IMG/VR virus record: IMGVR_UViG_3300008120_009632
Location: 1 to 64,000 of that record
Source: a virus
Length of the DNA stretch: 64,000 nt
Reading direction: 5' to 3' (one strand)
The position numbers were made by a program, and so were the translations under genes. The notes beneath the pieces are model-generated. The model did no database searches. It had not been told where the DNA came from and saw nothing but the letters and a program-made list of their open reading frames with translations. This document shows, piece by piece, positions 16,346 through 21,786 of the stretch; positions within the stretch are counted from its first letter, which is position 1; each line of letters starts with the position of its first letter.

Positions 16346-16374
16346 ATTATAGCCCGGTCGGACAAGAATGTCAA
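16346..16374 (-). promoter_or_regulatory. consensus sigma70-type promoter for ssb
   Basis: Minus strand TTGACA-N17-TATAAT, a perfect match, overlapping the dnaE-C stop codon. Confidence 0.85.
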
Positions 16375-17987
16375 GACCTGGGAACAAAACATTTATCTAC
16401 GACTAGCCCATCCTTGGTCTTGCTTTTATTTCCCACAAAAATCAAAATATTGTTTTCGAATAAATGATGCTTATATTTTGCATATGTTTCTGGAAAAAAG
16501 ATAACAGAATCTAATGAGCCTGTTTGATCTTCTATTGAAACAAAAGACATCTCCTGTCCAGATAATTTACCCTTTTTAGTTTTTATGACATTAATATTTG
16601 TGATTTCACCAGCAATGACAATATTAGAAGTACTATCATTATTTTTAAATGCTCTACAATCTACATTAGTCATATCTATATCATAACTATCTAACTTAGA
16701 ACAAGATATCGCAGTTCCAAGCAACGAAGCCTCTGTGTCTGCTAGCCATTCTATTTTATCTATTAAAGAATATGGTGGTTTATTAATACTCTGTAATAAT
16801 CCTTGTATTATTTGTTTTCTCTTTAGATTAACCTTGGGATGGCTTAGTAAATAACTTAATATATCTTTTACAGACGTTGTGTTTTTGGTCACTATAATAG
16901 CATATTCTATCTCTTTTTTGGTTAGAGAGCTAATAATATCAAGCTCAAATAACATTTCTGTTCTATTCTTAGATAAATAATCAATAGCTCCACTAGAAAT
17001 CAGAGCTTTAGCTGCTATAGAGTTGATATTGAGCAACAGCTTTATTAAAAGGTCTATCCATCCTAGCTTATACAAATCTATATTTACGCAAATATCTAGG
17101 ATTTTAGCGAATACAGAGTCTCCGACACCTTTTATGTCTGTTAAACCAAAATAAATTTTATTATCAAAGATTCCGAAGTTAGGATTCTTTAATCTTAAAT
17201 CTGGTAAGCAAACAGAAATATCCATTTCGCTTGCGTTCTTAATTAATTCTTTTATTTCCTGTTGAGGATCTATTTTGTCTTTGGCAAATTTTAAATAGGA
17301 TACAAAAAATGCCTCAGGAAAATGAGCTTTTGCATAAGCAGATAAATATGCGTTCATTGCATACGATATGCCGTGAGACTTATTAAAGGAATATCTTTGA
17401 CTTTTTTCGATCCAGCCGAAAATTTCTTCTGCTTCTTGTATATTTACAATTCCTAGTTTTTTTGCTCCATCTAAAAACTTTTGTTTAACCTTGGCCATTT
17501 CTTCTGGTTTTTTCTTACCAATGGCTTTTCTTAACGAATCAGCTTCTTGCAAATCGAATCCAGCTAAGTCTTTAGCTATTGACATAGCTTGTTCTTGATA
17601 AATCATTTCTCCATATGTTGTACTTAAAGATCTTTCAAGAGATTCATGAAAATAATTTATGGATTCTAATCCATTCTTTTTATCTATATAATGATTTGTT
17701 ACGCTTTTGCCGTCTCTGATAGCCTCTAGACATCCTGGTCTTAAGATACTAATAAGACCCGATAATTGTTCTATATTTTCTGGTTTTAATTTTTTTGCCA
17801 TCATTTGTCCAAGTCTGGACTCTAACTGAAAGCAACCTTTAGTATTACCAGAAGAAATAAGCTCCCATGTTTTGGAACATGATAGATTAATAGACTCTAT
17901 TTTTGGAGAAAAAACAAGCTTATGTTTATTTCCAGATGATCCTATTATATCGAAACAACATCCACAATCAAATGACCATTTAGGCAT
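16371..17987 (-). CDS. dnaE: DNA polymerase III alpha subunit, C-terminal half (fingers, HhH, OB fold)
   Basis: GNTKGCFQLES, RPG, TYGEMIYQEQAM, ADSLRKAIGKK, YSFNKSH, GLTDIKGVG, OB-fold C-terminus. Confidence 0.92.
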   Translation of the reverse strand: MPKWSFDCGCCFDIIGSSGNKHKLVFSPKIESINLSCSKTWELISSGNTKGCFQLESRLGQMMAKKLKPENIEQLSGLISILRPGCLEAIRDGKSVTNHYIDKKNGLESINYFHESLERSLSTTYGEMIYQEQAMSIAKDLAGFDLQEADSLRKAIGKKKPEEMAKVKQKFLDGAKKLGIVNIQEAEEIFGWIEKSQRYSFNKSHGISYAMNAYLSAYAKAHFPEAFFVSYLKFAKDKIDPQQEIKELIKNASEMDISVCLPDLRLKNPNFGIFDNKIYFGLTDIKGVGDSVFAKILDICVNIDLYKLGWIDLLIKLLLNINSIAAKALISSGAIDYLSKNRTEMLFELDIISSLTKKEIEYAIIVTKNTTSVKDILSYLLSHPKVNLKRKQIIQGLLQSINKPPYSLIDKIEWLADTEASLLGTAISCSKLDSYDIDMTNVDCRAFKNNDSTSNIVIAGEITNINVIKTKKGKLSGQEMSFVSIEDQTGSLDSVIFFPETYAKYKHHLFENNILIFVGNKSKTKDGLVVDKCFVPRS

Positions 17988-18681
17988 TTATAAAAGATCC
18001 TTTAAATTTTACCTTATTAGATAAATTTCTATGTAGTTTTAAAAATCTAATCATAATTTCTGCTGTATCTTTAACATCTTTTAGAGCATCATGAGCATTT
18101 TCTTTATCTATACCAAGATAATCTCTTAAGTTATCTAATGTATAGTTTTTTAATTCATTATTATACTCAAACCAATAAAATAGTAAATTCATAACATCTA
18201 TCACATCTCTTGGATAAAATAGAGAAGATCTACCTTCTTTATTTAGATTATCATACTTTTTACTTAATCTCTCAATGATTCTCAAATCAAATCTATTAAT
18301 ATTGAACCCTGCCGCGATTGGTGCAGAAAAGCAGGACTTTTTATTTCCATTTGATCTGGTATGATACATTTCCAAATAAGAAACAAACATCTTCCATCCG
18401 GCTTCTTGAGGTTGATGTTTCTTCCATGAATCAAGAATAGCCGCCTTAGAACATCCTCTTACTTTAGAGTGAAAGTCTAACACATCGCTATCTTCATAAG
18501 CATAGCCGGTATTGTCCTGTAAAAGTTCTGGTTTAAGATTTATATTAAACTCTGAGTCTTTAACTATCTCTAGTTTTATTGGATCTATAATAATCGCAGC
18601 AATTTGTACTGGACTGCATACATCCGGATTGACTCCATCTGTCTCCATGTCGAAAACACATATTTTTTGAAAATTAGGCAT
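17980..18681 (-). CDS. DEDDh 3'-5' exonuclease (DnaQ/epsilon-like)
   Basis: FDMETDG (ExoI), GFNINRFD (ExoII), HDALKD (ExoIII). Confidence 0.9.
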   Translation of the reverse strand: MPNFQKICVFDMETDGVNPDVCSPVQIAAIIIDPIKLEIVKDSEFNINLKPELLQDNTGYAYEDSDVLDFHSKVRGCSKAAILDSWKKHQPQEAGWKMFVSYLEMYHTRSNGNKKSCFSAPIAAGFNINRFDLRIIERLSKKYDNLNKEGRSSLFYPRDVIDVMNLLFYWFEYNNELKNYTLDNLRDYLGIDKENAHDALKDVKDTAEIMIRFLKLHRNLSNKVKFKGSFINA

Positions 18682-18853
18682 TAATTGTCACCGTTGTGGA
18701 TGCTTGAACGAATGTTTTGGTTGATGGATTGTTAGCGTCCTGAGCGTTGATAGATCTGCAACAACTAACTCTAACTTCTTGAATCTTGATATAAGATACT
18801 CCATTTAATTCGAATCTATCTCCGACAGCTAATTCTGAAAATACTTTATTCAT
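18674..18853 (-). CDS. 59-aa hypothetical protein (not in ORF track)
   Basis: Read by hand: MNKVFSELAVGDRFELNGVSYIKIQEVRVSCCRSINAQDANNPSTKTFVQASTTVTINA; preceded by AAGGAG; fills the gap between dnaE-N and the exonuclease. Confidence 0.75.
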   Translation of the reverse strand: MNKVFSELAVGDRFELNGVSYIKIQEVRVSCCRSINAQDANNPSTKTFVQASTTVTINA

Positions 18854-18855
18854 AA

Positions 18856-20736
18856 TTAAACTCCTTCTACTGATAATATTTGGGAAATATTCATAATTTT
18901 ATCTAACATTGCTATTCCAAGAATATCAAATTTGATTACACCTAAAGATTCAAGATCTTGCATTTCCATACCAGCTATTAACTGTTTATTTTTATTATCA
19001 TAAACCATTGGGCATATTTCAGATAACTTTTCTTGAGATATCACAACACCAGCAGCGTGTTTTGATTGGTTAGATTTTGTTCCTTCTAAACGAATCGCTT
19101 GTTCAAATCTTTTAGCGAGAGGACCGGACAGCGTCCCGTCATCTAGTAAATAACACCATTCCTTGAGTTTGTCAACATTATTTTCTAAAGCCCATCGTAT
19201 AATAGATGCTTCTCCCGTTTCCTCTTTCATTTCCTGCAATTCATCTGCTATCTTGGCTTCGTCAGGGATGTATTTGGTTATTTTATTCATTTCATCAAAA
19301 GAAATATTTCCGTATACTCTTAAGACCTCTTTTAATGCTCCTCTTCCTTTCATAGTATTAAAAGTGATCATTTGAGATACTTTATCATGACCATATTTAT
19401 CTTTGATGTATGCAACAACGTCCTCTCTTTTATTGATAGGAACGTCAACGTCTATATCTGGCATGGATACCCTATCCTCTGTATTTCGTCCAGCATTATA
19501 GAATCTCTCAAATATAAGATCATTTTTTATCGGATCTATACTGGTTATGCCTATCAAATATGAAACAAGACACCCTGCCGCACTACCTCTTCCAGGCCCA
19601 GGAAGCCAACCATTAGAGGCCACGTAGTTAACTATATCCTGCACTATTAAAAAGTAGCTAGACAGACCAGCACCCTGTAAAACAGATAGTTCGTATTTGA
19701 TCCTATTGACATACTCTTCTTGTTTATCTTGTTCTATAATATTTGCAATCTTTTCTTTCCAGCCATTTCTACATAATTGTCTCAGATATTCATCCGGATT
19801 ATCATCGTTCGGACACTTAAACAAAGGCAACATTGGTTTATTTGTAATGTCATAATCTTCACACATAGATGCTAATTCTATGGTTTGTTCTAATTCGTCT
19901 TGATTATGTATTTGTGTCATTTCTTCAAATGAAGGAATATGATATTTGTCGGATTTAAAGAAACAAGACATTGGAGTCTCTTCATCAGAAATTAGTTTTC
20001 TGTTAATGTCTGTTAACGTTGTCTTTAAATTATTACACAAGAGAATTCTTTGATCAACAGCATCATCAGACTCACAATAATGAGCATCAGGAGTTGCTAT
20101 TATTTTAGTATTGGTTATTTTAGCCAATCTTCTAATTTCTTGAGTAAGTTCTATCTGGTCCTTATTTTGTTCTTGATCGATTAGTTGTGCTTCAAGAAAA
20201 AAATTATTTTCTCCAAATCCAGCTTTGAGTTTTTGAATAAGATTAATAGTTGCGTTGGAGTCATTATTCTTTATACTATTTGCTACTAACGATCCAAGAT
20301 GACCAGCAAAGCCAATAATATTACCATCTAAATACGGCAATAGAGTATCTATATCTATTCTTGGTTTGTGATAAAAAATATCAGGACTATTAGACTTTGA
20401 AATAATTTTTATTAAAGATTTCCATCCATGATAGTTTTTAGCCAAAACTATAAAATGACTTAATTTAGAATTTTCTGGAGTTTTGACTGTACAATCATTA
20501 TTGGATATATACAATTCACATCCTAATATTGGTTTTATACCATTCTTCTTCATGGAAGAATAAAATTGTACAGCACCAGATATTGTTCCGTGATCTGTGA
20601 TTGCACAAACTTTAGATCCAATTTTTTGGCATCTTTTAGCTATTTGTTCTGGTTTACTGAGTCCATCCAAAAGTGAATAATGAGTCACTTAGGAATGGAC
20701 GTGTAAAGGGATATATTCCTTAATCACGTCCATCAT
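18856..20736 (-). CDS. dnaE: DNA polymerase III alpha subunit, N-terminal half (PHP + palm), with in-frame TAA at 20691-20689 after codon 15
   Basis: MMDVIKEYIPLHVHS*VTHYSLLDG; TDHG, GCE, DAHY, GPGRGSAAG, FERF, MPDIDVD, KHAAGVVI, KFDILG; SD AAGGAG before ATG 20736. Confidence 0.92.
20695..20733 (-). other. RNA hairpin at the dnaE 5' end (candidate recoding/regulatory element)
   Basis: Perfect 9-bp inverted repeat ATGGACGTG (20733-20725) / CACGTCCAT (20703-20695) with inner AAGG/CCTT pairing. Confidence 0.65.
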
Positions 20737-21786
20737 TTATTCTCCTTCTATGCTTCCTGGAGCTTTATATTTTCCAAACGAATGATTTGGATGTTTATAT
20801 GATTGTACCACAGAATCAATCCCATGCAACTCTAAATCATGTTTGATTTGTTCGCATTTGGTCATAAATTCGCCCTGCTTGCACGTTTGATTATCTCTGT
20901 ATTCTAGTATTGGTAAAATGCTAGAATCAGAAAAGTTAGTTTTTCCAAAATGGCACAATTTATTACACATCCAACTTTTATGCAATTTTGGCTTTTTAAC
21001 CGACTTGATAATCTCAAATTTTTGTCTTAACATATCTTCTGTTTTTTGAAGATCACTCTTATCAAAACATATAGAGAATGGACCACCATCATTAATGAAA
21101 TAGATGGAAAATATAATATGATCTATATGAGGATATAATTGGCTAATAGCATAATGGTATATTCTCAATTGTGGATCATTTTCTAATTTTTCTTGAGTCT
21201 TTTCTTGTCCTGTAGCCCAATCTAATCTTCTTCCAGTTTTCCAATCGATTATTTCAATAGTATTATCATTAACAAGAGTTATTAAGTCGATTGTTCCTTT
21301 TAGCGCCAGATTACCCGTTAAGACCCCGTCTGGTGTTTTAAAAGAGTATTCAGACCACGCTTTATTTATAGTAAAGTCGAAGTGTTGCTCCGGCTCAAGA
21401 ATTTTCCTATTTCTGGGATCAAACATACCATTATTGAATTTGATTGCCTTGTACACCCATTCTGTACAGTCTTTTTTGTCTTTAGGGCTCCATTTATGGT
21501 GTTTGGCAGATACCGAATAATGATTATAGACTACATCTATGATTTTTTCTAGATCATAATTGTTGATATCTATTAAGCCCGCTATATCATCATTGATGTT
21601 TGATTGGTTATCTTGTTCGGCTTTTTTAATAACAGCTAAAATTTCAAGAACTTTATGTACTATTGTTCCTTTATCAGCCTTTTGTCCAGACGGTCCTCGC
21701 CAACCAAGCACATATTCGATAAAATACTGCTGCTCACACATTGAATGAGCATTAAAGCTTGATGATCTAAAATATGTTATTATAAT
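20737..21786 (-). CDS. PD-(D/E)XK nuclease, Cas4/AddB-like with four Cys (Fe-S staple), probable non-AUG start
   Basis: GTIVHKVLE, GTIDLI, IIDWKTG, QLRIY; Cys at HSMC and WMCNKLC...KCE; frame extends upstream as IIITYFRSSSFNAHS to ATT 21786 / ATA 21783. Confidence 0.8.
   Translation of the reverse strand: MIITYFRSSSFNAHSMCEQQYFIEYVLGWRGPSGQKADKGTIVHKVLEILAVIKKAEQDNQSNINDDIAGLIDINNYDLEKIIDVVYNHYSVSAKHHKWSPKDKKDCTEWVYKAIKFNNGMFDPRNRKILEPEQHFDFTINKAWSEYSFKTPDGVLTGNLALKGTIDLITLVNDNTIEIIDWKTGRRLDWATGQEKTQEKLENDPQLRIYHYAISQLYPHIDHIIFSIYFINDGGPFSICFDKSDLQKTEDMLRQKFEIIKSVKKPKLHKSWMCNKLCHFGKTNFSDSSILPILEYRDNQTCKQGEFMTKCEQIKHDLELHGIDSVVQSYKHPNHSFGKYKAPGSIEGE

Follow-up and report, generated by a model that had tools for sequence, protein, structure and literature searches.

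How is a polymerase gene expressed when a stop codon interrupts it at the end of its first metal-binding motif? This question is raised by the 5' end of dnaE in a 64,000-nt stretch of DNA from a lake phage (the window; positions 1 to 64,000 of IMG/VR record IMGVR_UViG_3300008120_009632, an 87-kb viral contig estimated by CheckV to be 63% complete). All features described below lie on the minus strand and are numbered by window position. Translation and colinearity identified a dnaE leader open reading frame (ORF), MMDVIKEYIPLHVHS (20692-20736), which is 15 aa long, ends in LHVHS, the first metal-binding motif (H-x-H) of the PHP domain, and is closed by an in-frame UAA (20689-20691). The next ORF in frame begins (V)THYSLLDG and encodes a 610-aa PHP and polymerase III (pol III) alpha protein. 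A hairpin, H1, ends just ahead of the interruption. Judging from related sequences, we consider it likely that the 5' end of dnaE is a cassette for short programmed translational bypass and that H1 belongs to it.

Hairpin H1 and the interruption of dnaE

The leader is colinear with the M-K-x-Y-I-P-L-H-V-H-S-H-Y-S-L-L-D-G N-termini of 43 uninterrupted relatives, and the sequence beyond the gap (18856-20682) was assigned by Pfam to the remaining N-half of DnaE, comprising the PHP domain from HYSLLDG on and the pol III alpha catalytic core. Apart from the stop codon, the gap holds GUG (20686-20688), listed as an in-frame alternative start of the 610-aa ORF. The protein started at this GTG is without the first PHP motif: its PF02811 match begins at profile position 6 of 164, its residue 2 aligns to residue 14 of Taq DnaE (2HPI), and it also matches PF07733 (E 5e-76).

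H1 is formed by the 5' arm ATGGACGTG (RNA AUGGACGUG; 20733-20725), which includes the start codon (the second ATG), and the 3' arm CACGTCCAT (RNA CACGUCCAU; 20703-20695), which consists of the His-Val-His codons and ends one codon short of the stop. The arms make a perfect 9-bp stem with a 21-nt loop, and the last base of the stem immediately precedes TCC TAA GTG (20694-20686). RNAfold analysis of 20660-20760 placed the H1 stem in the minimum free energy (MFE) and centroid structures alike, together with a 4-bp inner stem (AAGG 20721-20718/CCUU 20709-20706) carrying the apical loop (20706-20721), also found in both structures, and a second hairpin (AAGUGA 20690-20685/UCACUU 20676-20671). The folding energy was -25.7 kcal/mol (z = -2.29), a value equalled by 3 of 200 shuffles. 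A 401-nt stretch of this sequence was identical in contigs of three independent freshwater runs, each from a different study.

The codons of the stem are rare in this genome of 30.9% GC, where GAC makes up 19% of Asp codons and CAC 20% of His codons, GTG and GTC 9% and 11% of Val codons, respectively, and TCC 8% of Ser codons. The first ATG (20736-20734) directly adjoins the TAA (20739-20737) of an upstream nuclease gene, and the second ATG (20733) lies inside the H1 stem. An earlier note on this DNA, made by inspection of the letters, had described the 9-bp stem, its extent from the second ATG to the base before TCC, its atypical GAC, GTG, GTC and CAC codons, and the abutting TAA and ATG; each of these points proved exact, and RNAfold, which the note had proposed for this region, returned the hairpin. 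The upstream gene (20737-21741) encodes a PD-(D/E)XK (Cas4/RecB-like) nuclease (PF12705, E 1.9e-16; PHROG exonuclease families) and is found upstream of dnaE in most interrupted and uninterrupted relatives. Because the dnaE start codon sits in a stem and abuts the upstream stop, coupling of the dnaE start to translation of the nuclease is plausible.

Conservation and variation among interrupted relatives

Viral contigs were scanned with protein sequence, and the best 80 of 148 relatives were kept. Most of these 80 loci were uninterrupted, and a minority had a stop after a Ser codon. Adding three viral pattern scans and one metagenome pattern scan, two of which placed no constraint on the take-off codon, brought the interrupted set to 69 distinct dnaE 5' ends, from phage contigs of lake and marine origin.

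H1 was present as 6-12 contiguous bp in all 69 interrupted variants, compared with 0-5 bp in 43 uninterrupted genes, and in every interrupted gene the start codon pairs with the His codon that precedes the take-off codon. Pairing is preserved by 21 distinct combinations of arms, such as AUGGCAG/CUGCCAU, AUGACGAUG/CAUUGUCAU and GUGGGCGUG/CACGUCCAC, with covariation extending to the start codon itself. Aligning 59 distinct leaders showed H1 to be 96.5% paired (96.5-97.4% over alignments), and four of its pairs were changed on both sides (26 cells). The observed values were reached by none of 500 shuffles, and slid controls were 25-45% paired. Many G-U pairs occur in the H1 stems of relatives, indicating that H1 acts as sense-strand RNA. 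The 5' ends of interrupted genes fold at -0.36 kcal/mol per nt versus -0.07 for the 43 uninterrupted genes. The inner stems of H1 in relatives are 3-7 bp long and differ in register. The covariation that the earlier note had thought worth seeking in homologous 5' regions is thus found, and its view of the hairpin as a selected RNA structure tied to the stop-containing insert is borne out. Since MAFFT broke up the 5' arm of H1 in the rows that diverge most, and since RNAalifold, run on a 92-column alignment, returned the stem H3 described below rather than H1 or H2, pairing in H1 and H2 was counted on the named structures with anchored scripts. At one locus, L157 (L157:3757-3830), the start may be a GUG that pairs with CAC, so that the first H1 pair covaries from A-U to G-C; an in-frame ATG lies further upstream there.

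The interruption itself has the same anatomy in all 69 variants. The leader, 12-15 aa long, keeps Y-x-P-L-H-x-H-S throughout (Pro is Ser in one variant) and ends in the proposed take-off codon (UCC, Ser, 20692-20694 in the window), which is TCT in 48 and TCC in 21 variants even with the codon left free in the search. The stop codon that follows is TAG in 36 variants, TAA in 33 and TGA in none. Comparison of landing codons makes ACU (20683-20685) the proposed landing codon of the window, after which decoding would restart at CAU (20682-20680). In the whole set, the proposed landing codons are TCT (26), ACT (13), TCA (13), GCT (10), TCC (4), TTT (2) and GCC (1). Each of them can pair at two or all three positions with a GGA anticodon, cognate UCY being used in 30 of 69, and 67 of the 69 are the earliest non-overlapping triplet of this kind after take-off. 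The distance from take-off to landing is 6 nt in 1 variant, 8 in 4, 9 in 13, 10 in 22, 11 in 23, 12 in 4, and 14 and 15 in 1 each. Gaps in frames 0, 1 and 2 number 19, 22 and 28, so that 50 of 69 are out of frame; those in frame carry the stop. Indels of one base in the gap distinguish cassettes that are otherwise closely alike. The smallest example, UCU UAA UCU at L157, would need a hop of 6 nt, has nearly no H2, and represents a minimal form of the device. ORFs in the genome of the window are normal under table 11, and 83 long ones end in TAA (47), TGA (25) or TAG (11). Although TGA ends 25 of these ORFs, it is never the cassette stop, and TAG is strongly enriched in the cassettes relative to 11 of 83.

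These gaps bear directly on how the stop codon might be passed. Readthrough of the in-frame UAA, giving DnaE with three extra residues (HVHS-X-V-T-HYS), would suit the window, whose 9-nt gap is in frame. However, sister cassettes of the same leader type (L128 and L164) have 11-nt gaps, most variants are out of frame, TAA is the commonest normal stop of this genome, and the extra residues would change the spacing of the metal-binding motif; we regard readthrough as quite improbable. Frameshifting by +1 or -1 was also considered and rejected, as the 69 variants span all three frames and no single conventional mechanism fits them.

Removal of the gap from the RNA before translation, by a micro-intron or by editing, could account for a gap lying within a conserved structured region. 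Yet no mechanism is known that cuts 6-15 nt out of one helix strand, the gap varies freely in its boundaries and its length, and an invariable stop flanked by Ser-like codons is a feature of ribosomal events, not of splicing. This explanation is therefore given very little credence.

A further possibility is termination followed by reinitiation. Here the leader would be a 15-aa regulatory upstream ORF, DnaE would be made from the GUG at 20688 (AUG in some relatives) and would work without H-x-H, and the hairpins would serve just to control access to the start codon and to couple translation. In the window, an in-frame GUG comes directly after UAA, and H1 sequesters the start codon; a canonical start in the downstream frame is available in 30 of 51 variants, and AUG is the first downstream codon in 15 of 69. 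Against this, the downstream frame of 21 of 51 variants offers neither ATG nor GTG nor TTG, and many have their GUG in another frame. The Y-x-P-L-H-x-H-S leader has been kept in 69 diverged variants despite changed H1 arms. The other PHP ligands (D32, H33, E58, H78, H130, D201 and H203) are all invariant in 36 interrupted and 45 uninterrupted proteins, implying that loss of H-x-H is unlikely. Reinitiation as the general explanation is thus unlikely, if less so than the two preceding ones. In three variants (L011, L149 and L151), TGA stands in the downstream frame just before the landing codon. The 15 variants in which the codon after landing is ATG and not CAY (L084, L089, L092, L102, L113, L149, L152, L205 and others) often have GGUGGG ahead of this ATG, and Met occurs at this place in no uninterrupted relative; some lineages may be adding or switching to reinitiation.

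Since no single reinitiation, frameshift or readthrough event covers all variants, a frame-independent hop of peptidyl-tRNA-Ser is favoured.

Two further helices accompany H1. The hairpin H2 (20671-20690; RNAfold and covariation) pairs AAGUGA (20690-20685) with UCACUU (20676-20671) across the loop CUCAUUAU; its 5' side consists of nucleotides 2-3 of the stop, the gap and the first landing base, and UCACUU belongs to Ser-Leu codons. In relatives, likewise, the stop, the gap and the first landing base pair with downstream Tyr, Ser or Leu codons. Covariation links the Ser codon to the gap (UCA with GUG, UCG with GCG or ACG, UCU with GAG or GGG), longer gaps bring UUU into H2, and native pairs reach -5.8 kcal/mol versus -2.5 for swapped arms. 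H3 (20661-20700), found in the RNAalifold consensus, is an extended take-off stem of GUCCAUUC (20700-20693) and GGAUGGAC (20668-20661) that extends and encloses H2, puts the take-off codon UCC in a stem and excludes H1. It is 98.5% paired but largely invariant, and in the protein-based sample all 8 bp were present in 12 of 12 interrupted versus 2 of 39 uninterrupted genes. Because H3 is mostly invariant and was partly fixed by the search patterns, its support from covariation is weak. H1 and H3 share GUCCAU and are mutually exclusive. The two states have almost the same predicted energy, both in the window (-21.1 for H1 with H2, -20.8 for H3 with H2) and on average over the 69 variants (-22.86 for the H1 state, -22.90 for the H3 state). 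Competition for GUCCAU would therefore make the free mRNA bistable, with the start codon hidden or exposed. A genome-wide count of stops flanked by two hairpins gave 56-83 matches per strand versus 52-70 in shuffled sequence, a comparison that carries no information in so AT-rich a genome.

The earlier note had placed the alternative state elsewhere. It proposed a two-state switch in which the H1 loop UUAAGGAAU would alternately pair with AUUCCUAA, hiding or exposing UAA and tuning termination. The pairing is real in the window, where TTAAGGAAT (20723-20715) and ATTCCTAA (20696-20689) form a duplex of -6.5 kcal/mol, a value reached by only 1.2% of shuffled loops. It is strong only in the window's own lineage, however: over 51 variants the mean was -2.5 kcal/mol against -1.8 for shuffled loops, and in several short-loop lineages the pairing is absent (0 to +1.3 kcal/mol). 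Moreover, the purine-rich half of the loop is already paired with CCUUU within H1. We consider such a switch very unlikely. Of the note's interpretation, the selected hairpin at the insert and its likeness to the stem-loops near the take-off site of T4 gene 60 thus agree with the comparative data, whereas the specific two-state switch does not.

A proposed bypass mechanism

We infer the hop, its efficiency and the role of each helix from these comparisons and from known bypass systems, and the following sequence of events is proposed. Ribosomes would start at the AUG in the 5' arm of H1, probably arriving by coupling to the upstream nuclease ORF. A ribosome finishing that ORF would open H1, and beforehand the balance between H1 and H3 would set the exposure of the start codon. 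After synthesis of M-M-D-V-I-K-E-Y-I-P-L-H-V-H-S, peptidyl-tRNA-Ser would sit on UCC in the P site, with UAA in the A site. Termination is expected to be slow, as the stop would lie in the take-off stem: H2 and its extension H3 would keep stop codon and gap paired as the 5' strand of a stem, hindering access of release factor as the take-off stem-loop of gene 60 does. Instead of terminating, the tRNA would release, the mRNA would slide by 9 nt, and the tRNA-Ser would re-pair on ACU, the first NCU-like triplet, with decoding restarting at CAU. At take-off, the 3' arm of H1 would be inside the ribosome, and re-zipping of H1 at the mRNA exit could pull the mRNA forward by about the 9-nt length of the arm, in the manner of the 5' stem-loop of gene 60. 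The product would contain a continuous PHP motif, ..PLHVHS-HYSLLDG.., as in uninterrupted relatives.

Several points weigh against this mechanism. The landing codon ACU of the window is non-cognate for tRNA-Ser, matching at two of three positions. The gap of the window is in frame and GUG follows the stop at once, so that readthrough or reinitiation would fit this genome taken alone, and for some lineages reinitiation is hinted at by AUG as the resume codon (15 of 69 variants). With a leader of 15 aa, a nascent-peptide signal in the exit tunnel like that of gene 60 is unlikely, and we know of no precedent for efficient bypass without a nascent-peptide signal. The conserved part of the leader is the same in uninterrupted genes, so no bypass-specific peptide signal is visible. 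The geometry of H2, with the landing codon atop the 5' arm, is unlike that of gene 60, and the role given to H2 is a guess. Most of the sequences were gathered with nucleotide patterns in which H3, and in one scan H1 as well, was partly preset. Finally, no RNA run was listed among the holders of the sequence, and one raw-read run was likewise without the phage. No tRNA gene was found in the window or in the 87-kb record, and hence no phage helper tRNA was seen in 63% of the genome.

Homing-endonuclease linkage and relation to known bypass systems

The origin of the cassette is suggested by its neighbours in relatives. A gene of about 240 aa encoding a helix-turn-helix and HNH/endonuclease VII-like protein lies between the nuclease gene and dnaE at 9 of 74 distinct interrupted loci, and C-terminal endonuclease remnants are in place at 5 further ones; the gene is present at none of 43 uninterrupted loci (Fisher p = 0.002). 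This endonuclease ORF ends within the H1 loop (..K-Y-G-R-D-stop), and the 5' arm of H1 is therefore its 3' end. No endonuclease homologue was found in the window, where only about 11 nt of its 3' end are left: alignment with loci bearing the homing-endonuclease gene (L128, L164, L188 and L085), which read ..AAGGAGAATATAAAGT ATGG.. at the 3' end of that gene, identified the Shine-Dalgarno-like AAGGAGAATAA (20737-20747), fused to the C-terminus of the nuclease (..GSIEGE*). In uninterrupted relatives the nuclease ends ..GSTE*, without AAGGAGAATAA. This sequence is probably all that remains of a homing-endonuclease gene lost by deletion. The cassette would thus have come within an HNH homing-endonuclease element, of which the window would keep the bypass part and a few endonuclease bases.

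In a DnaE tree the interrupted state is scattered, requiring 12 changes, of which well-supported branches carry at least 6. No signal of co-conversion was seen, as trees of the 300-nt flanks needed 15 and 16 changes versus 11 for the distal 1100 nt, a result compatible with lateral transfer as well as with repeated loss. One uninterrupted locus, L075, is nested among interrupted ones as the sister of L059 and L063; it keeps a 14-aa leader, VSIERNYVPLHVHS, of the length usual in interrupted genes, has no gap and no H1, and is an apparent case of precise loss of the gap. Other mobile or modifying genes occur nearby in relatives. A paralogue of the HNH endonuclease family (37% identity) follows the dnaE N-half, at the half split, in L059 (L059:4869-5528) and L100, and another HNH endonuclease copy lies upstream of the nuclease gene in L030 and L031. 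Upstream of interrupted dnaE in divergent loci, there are a TnpB-like ORF (Cas12f1-like TNB domain; L156:6272-7504) and an N6/N4 DNA methyltransferase gene (L148:1446-2180).

Linkage to an endonuclease that has decayed at most loci might also mean that the gap is a non-functional scar of homing activity and that the gene is either dead or not needed. Nevertheless, 69 diverged variants have kept three helices as well as the coding sequence and PHP ligands, and dnaE is the only DNA polymerase gene detected in the 87-kb record, at 63% completeness; its product is probably the only replicative polymerase of the phage. A scar is, like RNA-level removal, highly improbable.

Apart from the insert, dnaE is split again without an intein (16371-20688). 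The N-half ends after KFDILG.., a 59-aa ORF without family match and a DnaQ/RNase T-like exonuclease gene lie between the halves, and the C-half contains the finger, helix-hairpin-helix and OB domains. This split is not linked to the insert. The best 80 of 148 relatives all match the N-half length only, indicating that the split is ancestral to the family. The region had no megablast match among GenBank phages, and the nearest listed phages in tblastn were about 34% identical, so the group is uncultured.

Most likely, by analogy, the dnaE device is a miniature counterpart of the bypass in T4 gene 60, whose signals have been described (10.1101/2022.08.31.505936; 10.1101/2024.12.09.627546; for the MobA element, also PMC7026636). 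In both, a stop (here UAA or UAG in 69 of 69) comes after the take-off codon and occupies the 5' strand of a take-off stem-loop (here the predicted H2/H3), and a separate 5' stem-loop can close again behind the ribosome (here predicted for H1). The gap ends at a codon that resembles the take-off codon; here it is cognate UCY in 30 of 69 variants and matches at two of three positions in the rest. Skipping the gap brings the flanking ORFs into line with uninterrupted homologues. As in gene 60/MobA, the cassette is linked to a free-standing HNH endonuclease, decayed in many genomes, and the host gene is an essential replication gene that is itself split. In contrast to gene 60, the host gene is dnaE and not a topoisomerase subunit gene (gene 60/39), the gap is 6-15 nt (9 in the window) and not 50, and the break comes after codon 12-15, at which point the chain cannot yet reach the tunnel contacts on which gene 60 depends. 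In dnaE, the take-off hairpin itself harbours the landing codon, which is often no more than near-cognate, and the 5' stem-loop includes the start codon and vies for pairing with the base of the take-off stem. No sequence homology between the two cassettes was seen or expected.

Shorter hops are also on record. In the terminase gene of Streptomyces phage Hau3, short bypass over 10-nt inserts after UUA has been proposed and partly demonstrated (PMC10732093). As here, short (7-10 nt) frame-breaking inserts occur in a conserved phage gene, flanking secondary structure and a Shine-Dalgarno-like sequence are the proposed signals, and uninterrupted homologues are the main argument. However, the A-site codon there is a rare sense codon, UUA, tied to host tRNA availability, and not a stop; only three such genes are known, compared with the dozens of covarying variants of dnaE, and no endonuclease link has been reported for them. 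Non-programmed stop-hopping in E. coli covers 6-9 nt over a stop or hungry codon (Weiss 1987 and Kane 1992, as cited in 10.1101/2022.08.31.505936 and PMC10732093). There, too, peptidyl-tRNA moves to a similar codon a few bases on, and UCU UAA UCU at L157 has the same form; the E. coli events are rare errors without dedicated structures, in contrast to the three conserved helices here. In the mitochondria of Magnusiomyces capitatus, mobile inserts (byps) are tolerated because ribosomes bypass them (cited in 10.1101/2022.08.31.505936). The byps differ from the dnaE gap in being 27-55 nt long, mitochondrial and GC-cluster-like, with an unassigned sense codon in the A site. A full-text literature search retrieved no report of bypassing in dnaE.

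Taken together, these comparisons incline us, by a small measure, to the view that dnaE carries an independent second family of phage programmed bypass and the shortest known. It would hop 6-15 nt after 12-15 codons without a nascent peptide that fills the tunnel, driven by a start-codon hairpin that closes again in the wake of the ribosome and is in competition with the foot of the take-off stem (bistable H1/H3), and it would have been carried by an HNH homing endonuclease and outlasted that gene.

Few natural programmed bypass systems are known, namely gene 60, the yeast mitochondrial byps and the Streptomyces phage candidate. The dnaE cassettes would add about 70 natural variants of a minimal system of about 75 nt, in which gap length, landing codon and the three helices vary informatively, so that RNA folding on the exit side, the take-off hairpin and codon re-pairing could be separated with small reporters. 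For annotation, gene callers truncate such polymerase genes at the internal GTG and drop the first metal-binding motif. The cassette would also be a second case in which a homing endonuclease has left a gap in its wake and recoding makes that gap tolerable.

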